Positions 3,234-52,618 of a DNA stretch of 54,258 nucleotides are shown in pieces. A program made the position numbers and the translations under genes. The notes beneath the pieces were generated by a model. That model ran no database searches. It was not told the DNA's origin and was given only the letters and a program-made list of their open reading frames with translations. Each line of letters starts with the position of its first letter. Position 1 is the stretch's first letter. The stretch covers positions 18,914-73,171 of the forward strand of contig MQRK01203540.1 of NCBI GenBank assembly GCA_001938485.1, read 5' to 3'. The DNA is from Girardia tigrina. Its lineage: Eukaryota.

Positions 3234-4037
3234 CTAAAACTGAAACCATCTATGTCTCAAGATTTCTGGAAGTGATATTCGACCTTCGGGCATTTGATAT
3301 GTACATTTATCAATCAAGTCTTGGGCGTCATGGGAACATTTATCATAGGAGGACTTCCGATACGTTCTCGTAAAGTTCTCGTCTTCGAAGATGCAAATAA
3401 GTTCAATACAGTTAAACAAAGTACTTCCGAATGCGAATGACTGACTTTTTTGAATATCATACAGTTGATTGTCGAGAATTTCCGGACCACAGAAACCCAT
3501 TGTTCCTATCTTTTGATTCGTCTTGGGGTTATTTGTATTCGGGAAATATAATGCATCTTCAAAGTCAATGAATTTGATTTGAAAAGTGTTTTGATTGACC
3601 ATAATGTTTGGTGGTTTGATGTCGACATAATACATTCCATCTAGCGACAATTCCTCTAACGCTTCGGCTATATTGTAAAATATCTTCTTTAAAGTACTCT
3701 CTTCCCTTTGTGTATCCGTGTACACCAAAAGGTCAATCCAGTCTCCTGTCAAATGTTCTAAAACGATATAAAATTCGCTCTCATTTTCAAACCAATCGAG
3801 AACATCCGGTCGAATATTCGTATTTGTAACTCGTAAAATATTGGCGAGTTCTTTAGGAACTTGTGAGTTTGTTTTACGATCTTTTAAAACATAACGATCG
3901 ACATCTTTCTTCACAACTTTGATGATGACGGTTTGATGACGAAGGTTCGTCTGGCTGACATTTGTCGCGACATAGACTCCGCCTTTTTTCGACTCTTTTA
4001 TCGTTTTCAAATGTAAATAATTCTCGTTAAATTTCAT
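3234..4037 (-). CDS. Intronless divergent PIM-like Ser/Thr protein kinase (267 aa)
   Basis: VIIK lysine, VPKE alpha-C glutamate, PIM-like VLDWFE..FYIVLE..DL, catalytic loop YVDIKPPN, DFE in place of DFG, GT..GPE, C-terminal LRHRWF; intact ATG-to-stop ORF. Confidence 0.85.
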   Translation of the reverse strand: MKFNENYLHLKTIKESKKGGVYVATNVSQTNLRHQTVIIKVVKKDVDRYVLKDRKTNSQVPKELANILRVTNTNIRPDVLDWFENESEFYIVLEHLTGDWIDLLVYTDTQREESTLKKIFYNIAEALEELSLDGMYYVDIKPPNIMVNQNTFQIKFIDFEDALYFPNTNNPKTNQKIGTMGFCGPEILDNQLYDIQKSQSFAFGSTLFNCIELICIFEDENFTRTYRKSSYDKCSHDAQDLIDKCTYQMPEGRISLPEILRHRWFQF

Positions 4038-6474: not shown

Positions 6475-7587
6475 ATGAAAGACCCCAAAATATTACTAGA
6501 TCAGTTATTTGCCCCACTCCCGTTAATTAAAGAACCACCGGAATCATCGTATAGAAAACTATGGCGACATTCCGATCAAAGTGGTACAAATAAATTATAT
6601 TTGACCGTTGTTGAAAATCCCGCATTACAAATAATCAAAAACGATAAGCGCGTCCGACGGTTCAGTAATAGCAAAGCGATTCTCTCAAACGAATGTGTAC
6701 CGCCGAATGCCGTTAAAATCACCCATCACAAAAAGTTACCTTTGAGTTACTTTCGTTCCGAACCGTTTACTCCATTTATCCCCGATCTCTTGCTTTATGG
6801 GATCAATAAAATCGAATCGGATTGTCACAGAACACACGACTGGTCGATGTATTACAATTGTCATAAAAAGGCTGATAAAGCTCAATCGGATGAGTTGTTG
6901 GAGTTCAATGTGACGAATCCAACGCACTCAGAAGAATTGAAAGATTTAATCAGGAAATGTTCGTCCGATACTCTGGCGTGGAGTATATTGAGATTTCTGA
7001 CGATTTTCGAACACAAAATCCTTCACATCGACACCATTAATTTGATGAAAATCTTAAACGAACCGCTTTACGACAAATTTCTCCGGCCGAATCCCGGAAT
7101 CAAGGAAATCGTAAGGGCTTGTGTGTTGAAAAGTTCGAGAACGGTCGTCGATACTCTGGCGTTCATCATGATCCATATTCTACACATCTGGGAGTACAGT
7201 AACATGCCTCATAAAACGAAAATCAAACTGTCGCGACTATTTGGACCGCGTTTGTTGAGTTTCGAAGATCCTATCTATTTACTGAACACAGACGATATTT
7301 CCAGTCCTCAGTCGGCGATGTTGGAGGCCATTTTAGAGATTTGTGATCACGATTTCTGGCTGACGATGAATTTCAATCAAAGGAAAGAGGTGTTCGACAA
7401 GGAGACGGATTTCGAGAGAAAGCGAAGTTTGAAGGCGATTAAACGTCGTGATAGACCATTGGAATTCGCGTTCATGTGTAATCCGTATTCGCTGTTTCCG
7501 AATGTTAATGAAAGTTGGCAAACCGAAGACGATGAACAATACAAAAATACTCATTTTTACAAAAGATTATTGAAAATGCTTCCTTGA
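6475..7587 (+). CDS. Intronless RacGAP1/CYK-4-type RhoGAP-domain protein, arginine finger absent (370 aa)
   Basis: PFIPDLLLYGINKIE ~ PMIPxxxxxCVNEIE; DTLAFIMIH ~ RDTLAFLMIH; KLSRLFGP ~ NLAKVFGP; Q..LE.IL....FW end; GLYR position reads SMYY. Confidence 0.75.
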   Translation: MKDPKILLDQLFAPLPLIKEPPESSYRKLWRHSDQSGTNKLYLTVVENPALQIIKNDKRVRRFSNSKAILSNECVPPNAVKITHHKKLPLSYFRSEPFTPFIPDLLLYGINKIESDCHRTHDWSMYYNCHKKADKAQSDELLEFNVTNPTHSEELKDLIRKCSSDTLAWSILRFLTIFEHKILHIDTINLMKILNEPLYDKFLRPNPGIKEIVRACVLKSSRTVVDTLAFIMIHILHIWEYSNMPHKTKIKLSRLFGPRLLSFEDPIYLLNTDDISSPQSAMLEAILEICDHDFWLTMNFNQRKEVFDKETDFERKRSLKAIKRRDRPLEFAFMCNPYSLFPNVNESWQTEDDEQYKNTHFYKRLLKMLP

Positions 7588-12825: not shown

Positions 12826-14082
12826 CCCGTTGACTACCGGAGAGCCCGTAAATGGGTTTATGGCTTATAACTTTTGAACGAAGAGGAATTTTTTAATGCG
12901 GTATTTTTCTAAATATTACTGTTAACTTTTCTAAATCCTTTGATGCTGTGGAAAGGCCGTTTATCATTCAAGCAATACATACCATCAAAAAGAAGTAGAT
13001 TTGGAATAAAGTTATTTGAATTAGTCAACTGTTACTTGAAAGCAATATTAGATTTCATTGTCTACAACGGTTCCAAAACTGACATGTCGGCGTTAGCAGA
13101 TCCATCGTCATGTCTTTGCTACAACCTTATCTGAGCAAGGGACATGTTTTGTATTGTGATAACTGGTACTCTAGTCCAACTCCATTCAATTTATTGCATT
13201 AGAATAAAACTGGAGCATGTGGAACAGTGAGAAAAAATCGTAAAGAATTGTCAAAATTCACTGGAAAATCACGAAAAGGAGATGTTCAATGGTTTTCGTC
13301 TTCAGCTCTTCTAGTAATGAAATGGAATCGACAGTAAATAGTACAAATTTCTTGAACAGTGGAAAAACTGATAGATCAAACGGAAAAGAAATTATGAAGT
13401 CCGATGTAGTCATGGAATATTCGCAAAAAATTGGAGCTGTTGATGAAACTGACATGCAGATATATTTATACTTTGAAGTGGTATAAAAAATTATTCTTTC
13501 ATAAGATGGATTTGGCAATATTCATTTCGTATATAGCAAACAGAATGAAGCAGAATGCTAAAGACTTACAGCTTGCTCAGTTCAAATTGTTTTTGGTTAG
13601 AGAAATACTTCAGAGATATTGTCCTTCAGAGAGAAATAGATTTGGTAGACCTTCTAATGTTCCTACACCTTTGATATTAGTTGCTCGTCACTTTCCCGAC
13701 AATGTTCCACAAGATCCAAAGAGTAGAGAACGAAGTAGAAGAAATTGTATTGTTTGTAGTGCGAAAAAAAATCGACAACGAAGTTATTTCATGTGCCTTG
13801 ACTGTAATGTACCATTATGCATGCCAAATTGTTTCCGAATTAACCACTTTAAGCTTAATTTTATGTAAATGAGTGATAAAAACCAATTCTAATCAGTAAA
13901 ATATAATAATACTGCAAAAATTGAAAACTCTTGTTTGTAGCTCAAAAATCTCATTTTTGTAATTCTTTTGCAATAAATATTTCTGTCTTTTTTTAAATTT
14001 TTTTCATGCTGAATTACCTTCGTTACGTCTAAAACTTCAATAAAATTAACATATCTCCAAAAAAAATTCGGTAGTCAACGGG
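12826..14082 (+). mobile_element. piggyBac (PGBD4-like) internally deleted element
   Basis: TTAA TSDs 12822-12825 and 14083-14086; perfect 14-bp TIR CCCGTTGACTACCG; WKGRLSFKQYIPSKRSRFGIK, YCDNWYSSP, GAVD; Cys-rich tail CIVC..CLDC..LC...CF...H. Confidence 0.96.
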
Positions 14083-26313: not shown

Positions 26314-27150
26314 GTCTGTGGAAAGGGGTTTCGCCAAGCCAGCACCCTTTGTCGACACAAAATCATCCATACATCGGAGCGACCGCATATTTGCAAAACG
26401 TGCGGAAAGTCATTTAATCGCAGCTCGACTCTCAATACTCACATGAGAATCCATCAGGGGTACAAGCCATACAAGTGTGAAATATGCGGCAAAGGGTTCC
26501 ATCAAAAAGGAAACTATAAAAACCATAAATTGACGCATAATATAGAAAAACAATTCAAATGTCCGATTTGTACAAAAGCGTTTCATCAGATTTACAATTT
26601 AACGTTTCATATGCATACTCATACGGACAAGAAGCCGTACGTCTGTCAGCACTGTTCGAAAGGGTTCTGTCGAAATTTCGATTTGAAGAAGCATATTCGT
26701 AAACTTCACGCTAATGAAAAGATGATCAGTTCGTTGAATTTGACCGGGTCGGTTTGCCTGAAAACCATCGACTCCCATCATAACGATTATATATCTCCCG
26801 GGTCCGAGCTTTCGCCCAAATATTCTCCCAATTTATCCGTATTTCGAGATTTTCATTTACCGTTCTCATTTAACAATCGGTATTTCTATCATCATTCCTC
26901 GCCGACCTATTCGTCAGTGGGGGTCTACTTGTCCCAGTTGTCACCCTTTAACAATAAATGCTTACCAAACCCTTTGACCATGATTCAGAAACTTATTACG
27001 TCAAGTAAACAGAACCATTCCATTCATGATCCGATGAATATTCAGAATTTCCATAAAATTTTACCACATATTCAATCATTTTATCAATTACCCTTCTTGA
27101 ATCAGTTTAAAGAAGACAACCTCATGATGAACAAACTGGAGCATCTCTAG
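26314..27150 (+). CDS. fezf: Fez-family zinc finger transcription factor, coding exon 2 (spliced protein 391 aa)
   Basis: Acceptor AAG|GTC; [60 protein letters not shown] complete six fingers. Confidence 0.96.
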
Positions 27151-41630: not shown

Positions 41631-44480
41631 CTGACGAAAATTCAAAATGTCACAAAAATAATTTTAATGCGTTTGATAAAATAAAAAAATTACTGAAATT
41701 AAAACATTAATTTATTCAGTCACACAACAAACTAAAATTTGTTATTACAATTTTTTTACCTTAGGTCGGGTACCTATTTTATGTAATAAGTAACAATTAT
41801 CTCCAAATTTTTAAGTTATAATTGAACAGTCATTTCAGTTTAACTCTGTCGCCGTCTTTTTATTCAGCCCAAAATCAAAAGTCAAATGACTTGAAACGAT
41901 TTTAAATGGGCATTCTTCAATGAACAGAAGTAAAGCAGCTCTAACGACAGCGATGGCGACACTACAGTCATATCCTCCGCGTCCCTCGTCCGACTGAACT
42001 GTTCGCACTGTTCCTTCGAATTCGCCATTAGTGGAAGTAAAAGAAACGTAAATGTAAATAAATGCATTTATGATATTTGAAATCAGCAAAACTAAAACTC
42101 AGTTTGATTATAAAAAATGTTTTTATCTTTATTCATTTGCACTAAAACCACGTTTTAAGTGGCTTAGTCTGTGTCGACTAGTGAAGTTGCTAATGAATTA
42201 ATGGATTCATTAGAATTTCCATAGGAATCTGTACTCGATTCCACAAACGAAACATTTATCGTAAATTAACACTCCTGCTCTACCAACTCGCATAGAGATT
42301 GCTCAAAACAAAGTCAAATGCGTGGAAAATCTAAGTTTTACTTTGTGGTCGAGTGAGAAAAGTTGATTGTTTATCAAAGGGAAAAATTTTTACAAATTTT
42401 TTTTCATCATAAAACTCCAAATAAATTTTGTTTTTTTTCTAAATAAAATAAATTTCAATTTAAGGTCTCTGTTCTTTATGAGAGAAGCACATACAATCAC
42501 ATAGGAAATTATACAATTACCTTAGACATATTAGGAACTCAGTTTGCCAAAACTATTTAAGGGTACTTTTAAGAAGTGATCTATCAAAGGATGACACAGA
42601 ATGTGTAGGGATTTTATTGACAAAATTATTTCCCAGTTTCTTAAGAAAGGAATATACATGTATTATCTATCTACAAAATTATATGGTTGTTCAGCTGAAA
42701 TGCTAAGTAAACAAAAATTATATTATGATTCGATTTCCAATACTTTCCAATACAACTGATTTTTCCAATACAACTCGAATCACCTCCAGGACAATTTTCC
42801 ACCAAACCTTCGTATTTGGACATCGTTCTTAATTGATAAATTAAAATTCCTTTTGTAAACCTCTAATTATTCGAACAAATTTTAATTACAATTTTAAATT
42901 ATTTTCAAAAATATTTTAATTCATTTAAAATACATTATTTATGATTAAATAAATCTTTACTGTATATTCTACTAATAAAATATTATAACATATTTATTGA
43001 TTAAAATATATTAATTTAATTTCAAAGTTGTTATTTACATTTTAAAATTGATCGAATAATCCAATGGTTCAAAATATTTAAGATATCCATCTTCCACGTG
43101 AGGGGGCAGAAAAACAACATACCAAATACAACATACAATAAACACCATTCGAAAATATTCCTCACAAATATATATTAGACTAAAATAACAGCATTTCAAT
43201 TTTAAATTTTTATTTGAAAACATGATTCACCGTTTTTGTGGGTTCCACGACAAAACGCCGCGGACTAAACGCCGCGTAAAAAAACGCCGCAAACAAAAAC
43301 ACCGCAGGTAAAACGCCGAGGACAAAGATGCCGCCGTTTCGACGCTGGGACATTTTGATGCCAGAAATTAGGAATTTTAGGAATAAAATGAAATAATTTG
43401 TTATTAATTACGAATTTTAGGAATTAAATGAAATAATTTATTATTAATTAGGAATTTTAGGAATAAAATGAAATTATTTGTTGTATTTTATAATTATTAC
43501 TATCATTATTATATTTTTATTTTGTATTATTATAATTAGATTTACTGTTATTATTTTGATTATTTATTTATTTATTTATTTATTTTGAATTACTATTACC
43601 ATTAATAGTATCAATTTATTAATACTATTATTATTATTATATTTTTATTACTATTGTATTTTATTCAAATTAATATGAAACAATTATTATTATTAAAATT
43701 ATTATTATTTTTATTTAGCTCCTTTTCAACGAGTTTTTCCTCCCTCGCAGGGGCCCGGTCATTAAGGGGGCACGCCTGTGTCGTTTGGAAAAAGCCGTTA
43801 AAGGCTTGGTAGATAATTAATTTATTATTTTTATTTTTAGTATTATTATTATTACTAAGTATTATTATGATTATTTATTATTATAATTTATGATTATTTA
43901 TTATTATTATAATATGAAAATTATTATTATTATTTTATTAATATTCTTATTCTTTTATTAATATTCTTATTATTTTTATAATTATTATATTATACTATTT
44001 TTATTATTATAACATTATTTCATTATTATAATATTAGTATTACTTAAATTTTATTATCATATTATTATTTAAATTAATATTATTATTAAAATTATAAAAA
44101 TTATATAAAATTATAAAATAGCTTATAAATTAACATAAAAAAATCTCACCGTCAAATTTTAATTGTGATTAATAAATGACTTGGGCAATTATGCCAAGTC
44201 ATTTTATTAATCTTGAGCACTTAAGCTCAAATCAAAAATAATCAATGGGCAAATAAAGCCAAATTAATCAAATATAAAATTAATGAGGGAAATTAAGTCC
44301 AATTGTTAATAAATAAATTTTGTTTATTAATTAAAATTTTTTTATTTTTATATTAATAATAATAATTAATTCGGGTATAAATACCCCAAATTTTTAAAAT
44401 TAAATTTCACACAAAAAGCATATATAAAACACATAAAAATACGTTTTTGAAAAATACAAAAAATATTATTATTAATAGAG

Positions 44481-47208
44481 TGTAACACGCGAAAAGTTTA
44501 TTTTCAACAACTATGTTTAATTGATAATATTTAAACAAAATATTTATCAAAAAAGCATATATTAAATATTTGAAATAATCAAAATATCTAATATCCAACA
44601 CTCCCACCAGATTCGTCCACAGAAGAATCTGAATCCATAATGTAATCATTTAGATAAGACCGTCTTCGTCTTTCTCTTCTAGACCTACTGTTCAATGATT
44701 GTTCCTATTGTGTTTGATTGTCTGGTAGTGATGCAGTTTCCTCCATATTCATATAGTATGACTTGGAATTTTCAACCAAGTCAGGCTGTTTAGGTCGAAT
44801 GTCTGCGATATGTCTTGGACCACAAAATCCGTTGCAATTTACTAGATATATCCTTTGATCTATTCTTTTCACAACAACACTCTTGGCCCATTGCTGTGTA
44901 CATGGTGTACTGTTTTCCGGTTTTATCCACACTAATTGATTCTCAACATAATCTGGATTTCCACAAACGGTTCCTTTTCACTTCTTCCAATTATATCTAA
45001 CCCTATGGGCAAATAGCTATACAGCGCCGAGCTTGGTGTTTCCTTTCCTTCAGATGGCGTGTTATTATACCATCATAAGGCTTCCAAAATGTTGATATTT
45101 GATATGGACGCAATTTTTTTGATTGTTCTATGATTCCTTTTTATCATTCCGTTGCAGTTAGGTCGATTGATAGCACGATACATGACTCGAACGTTCCACT
45201 TTTCCATTAGCTTGTTGAATTCTGCCGAATGAAATGTGGTATAATTATCGATAATTAGTTCCTTGGGAGACCCGCGTTCACAGAACAAACTTGAAAATTC
45301 TGAGACAATTGACTTGACGTCTTCAGCCTTAATTAATTTCCATATAGCAAAGTGAGAAGGACCACAATCGATTACACTTCAAAATTTTTGTTGATTGTAC
45401 TTTGTAACATCCGCAGCAAGTCTTTTCCAGTTTTCGTTGACGCTCAGCCTACCGGTTTTCCATTTTACGGGTGACGGATCGATGGATTGACATTTTTGAC
45501 ATCTTGAAATCAGATCCTTGATATACGCGTTTGACACACCTATTCCTTGCTTCGCACATAGATATCGCATTCTGTTTGCGCCTAAATGACACTTATCATG
45601 AAGTTGCTGCAGCTTGAGTAGATCGTCCGTAACCGATAAAAAACAATTGCTTCTTTTTAATTGTTTTGGGATTCTTGTCAACTCGTCCGCCTTGTTATCT
45701 TCGCTATTAACAAACTCTATCTTCAACTCGATCTCATACTCCTGACACAGTTCCTTGATCATCGACAGTCTTCGTTTATTAAAAGCTCAGATTAAGCCTT
45801 GGTATTTAATTTTTCCGATCTGAGATTGTTGTGGTTACCCACGAAACTACTGAGATGATTCGGAGTCTCACTTTTCCAATTCCATTTAATCACCCAATTT
45901 TCCTTAAACTCAATTTCAAAATTATGCTTTTTTATACTAAGAAGAGGCGCATCCGATGCAGTACAACTCAAGCTACTTTCTATCCCTTTAATTTTTTCTT
46001 TGCCGAACTCAATAACACCCTTATTAATTCTCACGCCGCCAAATTTACCTATGACATCCATGCCTATTAAAATCCCTAGACCATACAGCAAATGTTCCAT
46101 GACCGAATATTCCACCCTAATGATCCCACCATTTATTGCCGCACTTCACCGGAACCCACTATAACACCCTTTCCATTTGCCAAAACCATACTTTCTCCGT
46201 CAGAAAACAACATACAATTACTAACTAACCTTTTTAAAACAACCGTTTTCGAACAACCCGAATCAATCAACGCTATGGCTGACCTGTCATTTACGGTGAT
46301 GATCATCGTCGGCAACGCCTGCAACTGTGAAGGGAGAGAGCCCGGCGCATACAAACTCCCCTGTTCGTTTCCCGACCGACAATATTTTGCGATATGACCC
46401 GGTTTCTGGCATTTGTAGCATATTGTTTGTCTGTTTGATTGCCACTGAGAACCCTTATGATGATTACTTTCCTTCGATTTGGTGAATCTCTCACGATAAA
46501 AATAGGGTCCTTTCTGAAGATTTGCTCTGGGTTTATCGAGTTCGTCCTGACCTCCGCAACTCCCTGTTTCTTTGTTGTTGTGGCCGTGTTGTATTGCTGC
46601 CATTGAAACCTGTAATAAACCCTTTTTAATCCCCAAATACCTGCGGCTATACTCGATCATTTCAGTCAGGGGTTGGTCGCCGGCCCATTCAAAATCCATC
46701 TGCAACTCGAAAGGCAGTCCAGCCTTCGTTAGATCGTCGACCTTTGTTGCTAACATTTTCACCTGAGACGCATATTTATCGATAGTCTTGCACTCGTGAT
46801 ACTGTAAGTTTATCAATTGACTGTACGCAGAACGTCTAGTCAGGCCGAACGAGTTGTTTAGTATCTTGAAGAACCGATCGCAGCCGCTTTGTGTCTTCTC
46901 GTCCGATTCCATGTATATGTTCAGTGCAACCCCCGATAGTAAAAAGGGGAGATACGGGGCTGGATCAGTAATCTCCTGGGTTTTCATGACCATTTCAAAT
47001 TTCTTCTGCCAAATCTCGATGCTGATGCTTCCATCGAATTTTTCCAAACACTCCAAAACGATTTTCCTATCATTCATTATGCCCGGATAGCTTGTAACAC
47101 GCGAAAAGTTTATTTTCAACAACTATGTTTAAATATATTTAAACAAAATATTTATCAAAAAAGCATATATTAAATATTGGAAATAATCAAAATATCTAAT
47201 ATCCAACA
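44481..47208 (-). mobile_element. Gypsy/Ty3 LTR retrotransposon lacking RT (gag-PR, RNase H end, IN)
   Basis: TG..CA LTRs 44481-44600 and 47093-47208; 5-bp TSD TAGAG; PPT at 44601-44608; knuckle CYKCQKPGHIAKYC; protease LIDSGC; RNase H end NKADELTR; IN HHCC, ADVT, IIDN. Confidence 0.96.
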
Positions 47209-47851
47209 TAGAGGAAGTTTTTAGATATAATATTTTTGGAATCCTCCATAGTTAATTATTTGTTGTATTATTTGGAAGAATTTTGTAATTCAATTGAATA
47301 AAATTTTTAAACCGAATTCCTTTGACTTATCACTATTAATAATATTTAGAAACTAATCATTGACGAGATTCATTTGAATTGAAACCTCAAGAGAGGGAAT
47401 ATCAAATTAATAAATTAATTACAAAGTTGGAAGAACCACCTGAAAAGGAGTCAGACATTCATATTTGAAAGCTTGTTTAAAGTTATTAACAAAAAATTAT
47501 TTCGAATACCCAACAAAATTATTCCATTTTTTNAATTATTTTTACGAAATAATGTTAATTAAAAAATATTAATAANTATGAAATTTTTTGAAAACACTAA
47601 AGACTGTAAGAAATTTTTATTACAATAACATAATCATATTACACAGATTGTAAATAAAAACAGTGTGCTATACCTCTTAAATAATCCACCATATTTCTCT
47701 CTTCATAGCCTTGCACAATTTTCAATAATCTACTGACGGCATCCTTATATTTTTTCCTTCCCTGTCTCGCTTCCATACCTGAAATTGCTTGTTCAAGCTT
47801 TATTTCATTTAAATTCGGCTCTTTCTTCAAATTCTCAATTAAGATTATTAT

Positions 47852-48640: not shown

Positions 48641-49433
48641 CCATTATTTTTTAAATTTCTTATTAATAACAAATTATTTCATTTAATTCCTAAAATTCTT
48701 TATTAATAATAAATTATTTCATTTTATTCCTAAAATTCCTAGTTAATAATAAATTATTTCATTTTATTCCAAAAATTCCTAATTAATATTAACTTATTTC
48801 ATTTAATTCCTAATTAATAACAAATTATTTCATTTAATTCCTAAAATTCCTAATTCATTTCAAATTATTTTGTCCGCGGCATTTTATCCGCGGTGTTTTT
48901 GTTCGCGGCGTTTTTGTACGCGACGTTTTATCCGCGGCGTTTTGTCGTGATACCCAATTCTGAAAGAACAATTACTGAAGCACTGTTAATAAAGTTTAGT
49001 AAACCTAGTTTAAAAAGTGATTCATCCAATCATATTTGAGTATTTTGACGTAACACATCGTCATGTTATGGCCATTTTATTATCTAAACAATAATTTTTT
49101 AAAAACGGTATCACAACAAAACGCTGCGGACAAAAACGCCGCAGAAATTCTGTAACTGTTTTTGTGGCATCTTCAATTCTGTATTTAAGTAAAAAATTAT
49201 TGTTTAGATAATAAAATGACCATAACATGTCGATGTGTTACGTCAAAATACTCAAATATGTTTGGATGAATCACTTTTTAAACTAGGTTTACTAAACTTT
49301 ATTAACAGTACTTCAGTAATTGTTCTTTCAGAATTGTGATCACAGTTACTAATTAAAACCCAAAAATCATTATCATATACCCTCATATGAGTTCTACGAC
49401 ATTTCACTATGTGATTCACAATTGAGCTTTAGC

Positions 49434-50297: not shown

Positions 50298-52618
50298 TTA
50301 AGTTGGGGAAAAATAAATCCATTATTTTGGCGTGAAATTCAAAACTTTATTTAACATGTTTCAGATTGTCCTCTTGGAGTCGAATATGCACCGTTTTGTT
50401 GTATAACTAGTTGCCAGTTTGAAGGTAGCTTCATAATGCCTCTCTCGTAGAAGTCTTGGTCCTTATTGGCGAAAAACTGTAGTAATCGATTTTCACAATG
50501 TTCTATTGATCCCAATTTCTTATCACTCAGGAAATTTTGCAATGCGAGAAAAAGGTGGTAATCGCTTGGTGTCAGGTCCGGACAAGATGGGGGATGCATT
50601 AAAACTTCCCATCCAAGCACCCTGAGTTTCTGGCGAGTCTATACAGACGTATGTGGTCTGGCGTTGTCGTGATGGAACACAACACCTCTTCTGTTGGCCA
50701 ATTCTGGTCGTTTCTCATCACTTGCTATCTTCAAACGGTCCAGTTGTTGACAGTACAGATCTGAATTTAGTGTTTGGCCATACGGAAGCTACTCATAATA
50801 AATGATTCCTTTCCAGTCACACCAAATACACAGTAGAACCTTCCTGACCATTAGTCCTGGTTTGGCGACCGTTTGAGGTGCTTCACCGTGCTTTGACCAC
50901 GATCGTTTTCATACAATATTGTCGTATGTGACCCATTTCTCATCCCCAGTAACCATCCGTTTAAGAAATGGGTCGATTTCATTTCTTTTGGTCATGGCTT
51001 CGCAGATGGAAATTCGATCCATCATGTTTTTTGGTGTTAATTGATGTGGAACCCAAACATCAAGTTTCTTTTTGAATCCTGCTTTGCCAAAATGGTTTAA
51101 AACAGTTTTGTGGTCAATCTTCAGCTCCTGTGCGATGCTACGACTACTAACATGCCGGCCAACTTCGATCATTGCCCAGATTTTATCGACATTTTCAACG
51201 ATAGGCCTGCCTGTGCGAGGTGCATCTTTAACATCAAAAATGCCTCCACGGAATCGACGAAACCAAAATTGCGTGTAATTAGCTGTTACAATATTGGGAC
51301 TCCCCATGGATGAACTACAGTACAGAAAATATTCCAAATTACTTTATTGGATTCTTGCTCACAAGACATTATAACGAACACCAAAATTTATTTCTATAAC
51401 AATTAGAATTTTTTAAACAAATATTTTTTTGAGGAACTTTTGTATTTTCTTTTTTACACAACCAATATAAATAGAAATATGTATAAATAAAAATATTATT
51501 TGTATATTTTTTACAAATTAAAAATTTATATTTTCTTTAATAAAAATTATAGTAAATTAAAATTTTGTCACAAAAATTTTATTGCGTCTCTTATTAGTTT
51601 TTCAATTTTATAGTACATTTAAATTTAACTATTTTTCAATTACATTTTATAAAAAAAATAAAATCGCATTTTTTATTTAAGTCAATTTAAGGGTTTTCAA
51701 TTACTTTTAATTCCAATTTTTTAATTTCCAATAAAAAAATTATAATTACATTTTCCAAAAAATTATAACCACATTTTAAATTTACTTTGATTTAAAAGTT
51801 GCAAAAATTAGTTTAGTTTGCTTTTATTTCGAAAATAAAAATATCAAACTTAAATTACTTTTATTTTATTTCAAATAAATATTTTCATCAAATTTGAAAT
51901 TACTTTTTTTTATAATTCTCAATTACATTTTCCAAAATAAAATTAAAATCGTATTTTTCAATTAAGTAGATTTATTTGTTTTAAGATTATTATTTTTTTA
52001 ATTCCAATTACCATTTCCAAAACGAAATTATAATTACATTTTTAATCTACTTTGATTTAAAAGTTGCTAGAATAGTTTAGTTTACTTTTATTTCGCAAAT
52101 AAAATATCAAACTTTTTATTTTATTTCAATTAAATATTTTCATCAAATTTAAAATTAACTTTTTTTAGTTTATAATAAATCTTTACATAAATCTTTTAAT
52201 AACCCTACCGTAAAATTTATTTTATTTCTTACTTAAATTAATTTTTTACATTAAATTTCTGAAAATCTATTTTAACATATTTATAACAATATTTTATGGA
52301 ATGTAATTGTTTATCTAATAATTTCATAACATTCAAAAATTTTATTTTATGAACGTTCCCAACATACTTTATTCAACGAGTATCACAAATAGATAAACAC
52401 CATTCACAATAGCGGCCGTCTGGCTTGCATTTTCACCTTTATCGAATAAAAACTGTAAAATGTACCGAATATTTTCTTTGTTGACTTCCATTTTTAACAC
52501 CCTGTAACTCAGAACTGAATAAAAAAAGCAAATTTTTTTGTGAAATGTGACCTTGACAAAGAGCATAAATTAGAAATTGTTTGATCGATAAATAATGAAT
52601 TACTTTTCCCAAACCTAA
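50298..52618 (-). mobile_element. Near-complete mariner element (mellifera-subfamily-like), interrupted at 51296-52396
   Basis: TA-flanked TIRs; MEVNKENIRYILQF, WVPHQL, TGDEKW, HHDNARPH, HPPSCPDLTPSDY; subfamily assignment from memory. Confidence 0.95.
51349..52364. mobile_element. AT-rich insertion with 9-bp TSD and internal ~280-bp tandem duplication
   Basis: TACTTTATT at 51340-51348 and 52365-52373; about 51638-51903 repeats at about 51921-52160. Confidence 0.7.

Follow-up and report, generated by a model that had tools for sequence, protein, structure and literature searches.

A putative primer-binding site complementary to nucleotides 1-12 of host tRNAs in a divergent group of LTR retrotransposons from Girardia tigrina

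As a general rule, priming at a canonical primer-binding site (PBS) is by the 3' end of a tRNA (PMC4558846). An LTR element in the window, the whole 54,258-nt stretch of Girardia tigrina contig MQRK01203540.1 analysed here, raises the question of which RNA could prime an element whose 5' LTR is followed by the complement of the other end of a tRNA. An earlier note on this DNA had read the site as a match to nt 1-12 of tRNA-Lys(UUU) and suggested a very short 5' tRNA fragment, cut in the D arm, as the primer. We consider it probable, at about 0.8, that the PBS is the complement of tRNA nt 1-12 and that reverse transcription starts from a 12-nt 5'-terminal tRNA fragment with its 3'-OH on U12. 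The sequence evidence for this model consists of the position of the site, its exact bounds, and its switch from family to family among tRNA-Lys(UUU), -Lys(CUU), -Phe, -Tyr and -Ile(AAU).

The window copy has the hallmarks of an LTR retrotransposon, namely paired LTRs, a target-site duplication and a polypurine tract (Table 1), and gag, protease, reverse transcriptase (RT) and RNase H as well as integrase are present at the family level. The two LTRs have TG...CA ends, and their alignment shows one substitution and four gapped bases. Read on the minus strand, the 5' LTR ends in ...GTGTTACA (47093) and is followed with zero spacer by AGCTATCCGGGC, the trinucleotide ATA and the gag ATG (47077). 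The absence of TGG and the three-nucleotide distance to gag are thus as first described. The plus-strand form of the 12-mer, GCCCGGATAGCT (47081-47092), occurs only once in the window. Compared with sister copies L188 and L190, the window copy has lost about 1.1 kb comprising the RT and the beginning of RNase H. It is a dead member of a high-copy family, for which a first look at the genome returned 2463 candidates, 40 of them scored. The leader shows no unusual folding (z = -0.61), and an Rfam search around the element gave no match.

Table 1. Features of the LTR element, in window coordinates
Feature	Position	Strand	Basis
Target-site duplication CTCTA, 5' side	47209..47213	-	matched by CTCTA on the opposite flank
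5' LTR, 116 bp, TGTTGG...GTTACA	47093..47208	-	second LTR and CTCTA duplication fix the limits; loose contig ends at 47092 and 47208
Putative primer-binding site AGCTATCCGGGC, complementary to nt 1-12 of tRNA-Lys(UUU), adjoining the LTR	47081..47092	-	sequence and host tRNA genes
314-aa ORF with premature stop, covering gag (with CCHC knuckle) and the beginning of protease	46133..47077	-	ORF translation
Junction of ~1.1-kb internal deletion (RT and first part of RNase H)	45853..45860	-	comparison with L188 and L190
Terminal part of RNase H, then integrase (HHCC, core, C-terminal part), with stops and frameshifts	44700..45762	-	lower limit approximate
Polypurine tract GGTGGGAG, adjoining the 3' LTR	44601..44608	-	sequence; same position purine-rich in other families
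3' LTR, 120 bp	44481..44600	-	LTR comparison
Target-site duplication CTCTA, 3' side	44476..44480	-	matched by CTCTA on the opposite flank

The match to the host tRNA is exact. All four pattern matches in the genome to a tRNA-Lys start are tRNA-Lys(ttt) genes according to ARAGORN, and they begin with GCCCGGATAGCT. The site carries a C opposite G6 of tRNA-Lys, where the 3' acceptor strand has U, indicating that it mirrors the 5' strand of the tRNA and is no by-product of acceptor-stem symmetry. No better match to a tRNA 3' end exists among 47 host tRNA sequences, an incomplete set. At the 5'-LTR junctions of the window family, the exact 12-mer is retained in 18 of 29 cases and a variant with one or two changed bases in the other 11 (listing from 30 loci, window copy included, L006 left out). 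Because the sister copies are approximately 95% identical, conservation at these junctions alone shows only descent. In most families, the site lies 0-15 nt from the gag ATG. The longest piece of the primer sequence found in the LTR is 5 nt of the 12, and in the whole element 6 nt, which excludes Tf1-type self-priming, as the earlier note had argued.

The Lys-type site extends well beyond the window family. A pattern built to leave that family out gave 82 genome matches and none for a reversed control, indicating that the occurrence of the Lys 12-mer is not due to chance. Thirty loci fetched from these matches contain at least three further families with other LTR ends, other bases after the 12-mer and related gag starts, and the same Lys 12-mer stands behind at least four different LTR ends. 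A looser pattern yielded 4251 matches (787 for its control), and most of the first 100 listed are 12-mers of Lys or Phe type or close variants of these. Within the Lys site, base 6 is variable (19 G, 15 C and 3 A; n = 37). With G at this position, the site is the exact complement of tRNA-Lys(CUU), a form that five families show among the 30 fetched loci. In the family of the window copy, G is without clear excess (three loci, compared with four C and two A), and the three copies that carry it are rearranged or truncated, align poorly and leave the tree uninformative. The LTR ends in CA in all 46 copies of the two largest Lys clusters. A primer that includes C13 was rejected on these grounds, L279 with a G there being the lone case among paired LTRs. 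We note that 5' LTRs ending in CT or CG next to the site occur at L336, L354, L359, L361, L368-L370 and L279; these may reflect plain decay, and the loci were mostly picked for a non-A base. One Lys family extends the site with GCCCGAC (L033, L038, L045, L047, L049, L050, L062, L421, L424, L432 and L433). Three descriptions fit this extension simultaneously: it complements nt 67-72 of tRNA-Lys, forms a 10-nt palindrome and gives a near-canonical Lys PBS. It could pair with nt 67-72 of the tRNA or have a role as a palindrome.

More distant relatives match other tRNAs. We took 100 of 150 genome matches to the RT domain PF23088, with RTs mostly 33-45% identical to that of the window family, and compared them with the host tRNA set, whose 47 sequences comprise 21 distinct 5' and 21 distinct 3' 12-mers and are incomplete. 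Exact complements of nt 1-12 occur 1.0-2.5 kb upstream of the RT anchor 19 times on the sense strand and never on the antisense strand. Exact complements of the CCA end of these 47 sequences are absent from the sense strand at any position in the 100 loci, and CCA-end matches with one mismatch are similarly frequent on both strands (20 sense, 15 antisense). Related families with unrelated LTRs carry exact complements of nt 1-12 of tRNA-Phe (AGCTATCGCGGC), tRNA-Tyr (AGCTATCATCGG), tRNA-Ile(AAU) (AGCTACTCGGCC) and tRNA-Lys(CUU); for the Ile type, L330 is the only locus fetched, and one further locus was listed by the looser pattern. With AGCTA held fixed, the probability that a random 7-mer matches one of 13 host starts is roughly 8e-4 per switch.

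The bounds of the site are equally sharp. In 18 loci for which an LTR pair and a polypurine tract were found independently of the motif, an exact nt 1-12 match is present in nine (offset -1 to +2), a mutated site in five and an incomplete LTR alignment in four; none begins with TGG. The tRNA matches in paired-LTR loci end at nt 12, once at nt 13. Across 26 representatives with different LTR ends, position 13 of the site is mixed (11 A, 7 C, 6 T, 2 G), which places the end of the match at tRNA nt 1, and LTR positions -3 and -2 are A in 21/26 and C in 22/26. This count leaves out tRNA-gene loci and L334, L364, L372 and L358, which are off the LTR end or show no gag evidence. Within this one genome, the covariation strongly supports the site as a clade-wide feature. 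The idea of priming by a fragment thereby becomes stronger than first proposed, since other families match nt 1-12 of other tRNAs; the specificity for Lys does not hold.

A quick IQ-TREE maximum-likelihood tree of RT-RNase H (51 rows) places the Lys sites in a clade with support of 99 and the Tyr sites in one with support of 100, and Phe sites appear in several deep branches. One family complements only nt 3-12 of tRNA-Phe, and its clade is sister to the Tyr clade. One copy, L251, differs at three bases. L244 was considered as an Ile site and rejected; it has a Phe site with a one-base deletion and lies inside a Phe clade. All of the primer tRNAs have A9. In tRNAs, G9 is usually methylated, and the methyl group blocks pairing. 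The tRNAs for Thr, Ala, Cys and Ile(UAU) also have the AGCU end, and use of them was not seen in the 100 loci.

Two of the host tRNAs call for comment. The tRNA-Phe sequence was assembled from a 5' part and a 3' part that are split by an insertion, and the genome search found no uninterrupted tRNA-Phe gene. In this tRNA-Phe(GAA) gene (L365:89-119 and L437:1485-1543; G000:C181207), tRNA nt 16-31 are duplicated as a 16-bp repeat on either side of the insert of approximately 1.8 kb, and the same flanks are found on other Phe halves (further loci of this kind are L350, L351, L416 and L438-L441). The insert is a candidate for an element with tRNA-Phe genes as its target. Those Tyr genes that were fetched complete start with CCGGTGA, giving a G-U pair with the site; the exact start CCGATGA is present in 13 of 95 matches, and both such loci fetched are truncated. 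These genes were missed by ARAGORN without intron mode, and many were labelled Asn with it; we took them as intron-bearing tRNA-Tyr(GTA). Most of the 95 matches (L301-L327) are copies of tRNA-Tyr that have the 5' flank in common. Many of them lie on short contigs, several are interrupted within or close to the intron, and a mobile element possibly carries or targets them.

The position of the site constrains where the primer would end. The 3'-OH of a primer sits at the LTR-proximal end of the PBS. Here, U12 is the partner of the LTR-proximal base, and the terminal A of the LTR would stand opposite C13, so the primer should end at or before U12. A shorter primer of 10 nt, next to a fixed AG spacer, is a possible alternative; it requires a coincidence. 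In the 12-nt model, the acceptor and D stems of the tRNA would open and nt 1-12 would pair with the site, for which the predicted duplexes have energies of -19 to -23.5 kcal/mol (-17 kcal/mol for the 10-nt family). The tRNA would then be cut between U12 and C13, where the pairing ends, and the favored cutter is the element's own RNase H, acting as in Tf1. RT would extend U12 into the terminal A of the LTR, placing the cDNA end at CA without a spacer, and plus-strand strong-stop synthesis would run off the 5' end of the primer at nt 1. Such a run-off would explain why the match stops exactly there. RNase H is favored as the cutter because the geometry is that of Tf1 with a tRNA in place of the transcript, and the RNase H motif residues are present in proteins of the family. 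A host nuclease stays a close rival because the AGCU|C end is common to all of the primers. Provided that the model holds, we put cleavage by the element's RNase H at nearly even odds and a host nuclease with trimming somewhat lower, and regard any other cutter as unlikely.

The alternatives differ in whether they retain the 12-mer as primer. The same primer might be made by the host, through an endonuclease that cuts the D arm to release the 12-mer or a longer 5' fragment that is trimmed back to the duplex. Short 5' tRNA fragments produced by D-loop cuts are known, the AGCU|C end common to the primers would suit an enzyme with a fixed site, and the half-tRNA primers of copia elements are themselves cut tRNAs according to a survey of plant LTR elements (PMC6317226). 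Against this, the cut would fall inside the D stem exactly where the pairing with the element ends, which is the geometry of Tf1, and the GCCCGAC extension of one Lys family looks as if an intact acceptor stem were bound, though it is also a palindrome. A host-made primer is accordingly a real possibility that we nonetheless judge somewhat unlikely. Ty1 and Ty3 are known to bind tRNA in a bipartite manner, and the 12-mer could in principle serve only to dock an intact tRNA, like the auxiliary boxes of these elements, with the CCA end priming at another site. One Lys family does have GGCGCCCGA overlapping the site, equal to nine bases of the canonical Lys PBS. The GCCCGA extension is confined to that one family, however, and the primer 3' end must lie at the LTR boundary, where the base pairs with U12 rather than A76. 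The lack of exact sense CCA-end complements in the 100 loci, with a one-mismatch rate equal on both strands, also speaks against docking, which is very unlikely.

Two further readings dispense with the tRNA as primer altogether. Some other small RNA, or a self-primer, whether of the Tf1 type or encoded by the element, might resemble tRNA starts by chance, and self-priming does exist in the Tf1/Sushi, Tcn1 and TAR lineages as surveyed (PMC6317226). The match to the primer sequence does not exceed 5 nt in the LTR or 6 nt in the element, only one exact antisense match occurs in the 100 loci, Rfam has nothing around the element, and there are five 12-mers that each match a different tRNA from nt 1. 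The covariation with tRNAs largely refutes this explanation, which we consider the least credible of those weighed. Alternatively, the site could be a captured tRNA remnant or a regulatory target, for example for control of gag translation guided by 5' tRNA fragments, without a part in priming. In most families it precedes the gag ATG by 0-15 nt, which would be in keeping with such a role. It nevertheless occupies the position of a PBS, no alternative PBS is present, and it has been re-matched in register to new tRNAs several times, leaving this reading scarcely more plausible than chance resemblance. We retain the 12-nt 5' tRNA fragment as the preferred primer.

How does this primer compare with those already described? 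Half-tRNA priming occurs in Drosophila copia and yeast Ty5. The plant survey recognizes three primer types, the whole tRNA, a half tRNA cut in the anticodon stem and the self-primer, with half tRNA-Met used by Osser, Bryco and Gymco-II and half tRNA-Ile by Bianca, all within Ty1/copia as that survey presents them (PMC6317226). As in these elements, the primer here would be a 5' fragment of a host tRNA and not its CCA end. Unlike theirs, its 3' end, as judged from the site, would be U12 in the D stem and not in the anticodon stem; the fragment is paired in full from nt 1, five tRNAs are matched, and the gene order is PR-RT-RH-IN, whereas copia, Ty5, Osser and Bianca have integrase before RT. 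The Tf1 RNase H is described as cutting between bases 11 and 12 of the 5'-terminal RNA paired to the PBS (PMC7175516). The resemblance to Tf1/Sushi is close, since here too an 11-12-nt 5'-terminal RNA would be fully paired to an LTR-adjoining PBS and cut at the end of the duplex. Tf1 uses the first 11 bases of its own transcript, whereas the LTR of the present element lacks the complement and a tRNA would act in trans. Canonical 3'-end priming by tRNA-Lys, as in HIV-1 and many Gypsy elements, shares the tRNA species and a PBS directly downstream of the 5' LTR, but the present site lacks TGG and matches the opposite end of the tRNA. The flatworm elements Saci2, lennie and ta-TRIM are likewise animal LTR elements with family-specific PBS changes, though the PBSs reported for lennie and ta-TRIM match the 3' end of tRNA-Leu (PMC4558846; PMC12471100). 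By its sequence, the element fails the defining test of whole-tRNA, half-tRNA and self-primer types alike.

The classification of the element is less straightforward than its structure suggests. The earlier note had called it Gypsy. The PR-RT-RH-IN order, identified by Pfam in P0001, P0026 and P0041, agrees with this, and the same order is common to Ty3/Gypsy, BEL/Pao and retroviruses. The best 60 of 204 PDB matches to the RT are weak (E = 5e-9 to 3e-7) and comprise HIV, foamy-type Pol and one "enzymatic polyprotein", with no Ty3-named entry among them, so that the label is unconfirmed. RVT_1 scores of the clade's RTs are near the cut-off, the clade has its own domain, PF23088, which the element's RT carries, and language-model features of the RT are nearest to the hepadnavirus P protein (polymerase). 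We note that the RT of this clade is unusually divergent (L188:3603-4409 and relatives).

A profile search retrieved 743 representatives at E <= 1e-30. Four of 20 clusters looked up carry names, and the named members come from Trichuris suis, Sycon ciliatum and Nymphon striatum; by sequence, the PF23088 clade thus reaches nematode, sponge and sea spider, with the DNA evidence for the site coming from one genome. These members interleave with the G. tigrina families on the tree, with weak deep support. The N-terminal extension of P0039 ends in LQAIAAM, the expected reading of an LTR end, a Phe-type site and the gag ATG. This protein is at most 43% identical to the G. tigrina loci compared and is the single protein-level hint outside the genome; the extension of Sycon P0183 (MVGLVLEIM) is at odds with the motif. 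The window family is also present in contigs from runs labelled with three other organisms, with no site change among the differences listed, and the hosts of these runs may be the same or a close species. One raw DNA run from 2026 gives hardly any coverage of the stretch. A metagenome scan for the LTR end, 12-mer and ATG gave at least 120 matches, none of those listed having tblastn similarity to the element's proteins, and these were rejected as relatives and attributed to chance. Scans of viral contigs and prokaryote genome contigs for related loci found no relative.

The earlier note did not recognize this priming mode as described, and our literature searches, whose scope excluded Repbase and subscription journals, likewise found no description of priming by a 12-nt 5' tRNA tip. 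Two surveys of invertebrate LTR elements made no mention of PBS or tRNA. We think it rather improbable that a prior description exists somewhere. If the model is true, this would be a fourth primer type beside the whole tRNA, the half tRNA and the self-primer listed in the plant survey (PMC6317226), and the first tRNA-fragment primer outside Ty1/copia in the literature searched; arguably, it is a new variant within tRNA-fragment priming. It would link two odd modes, sharing the tRNA origin of half-tRNA priming and the geometry of self-priming. PBS finders query the 3' ends of tRNAs, as in the use of the last 12 bases (PMC13524379), so such elements would be scored as having no PBS. The model predicts defined 12-nt 5' tRNA fragments, below the usual small-RNA size cut-offs, and a PBS beyond the targeting by 3' tRNA fragments through which silencing has been described (PMC7472051). 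More tentatively, the whole PF23088 clade, from sponge to nematode and arthropod, may use this fourth mode, in which RT/RNase H would unzip a host tRNA from its 5' end and cut after U12 for the 12-mer to prime. This would be Tf1-style priming in trans, ancient and undescribed, beyond the reach of silencing by 3' tRNA fragments, and it would supply very short 5' tRNA fragments.

The surroundings of the element contain several other features. Long inverted arms with 40-bp subrepeats lie on either side of it, at 43239-43482 and 48644-48956, and this bracketing suggests insertion into a DNA-transposon-like element. A 147-bp inverted repeat (48955-49336) lies next to an inverted arm. Fragments of DDE and Tc1/mariner type are found at 1028-1393, 13443-13868 and 50909-51307. 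Elsewhere, the window holds a 370-aa ORF with no Pfam match (6475-7587), a C2H2 zinc-finger exon (26443-27150) and an intronless Ser/Thr kinase ORF (3234-4037).
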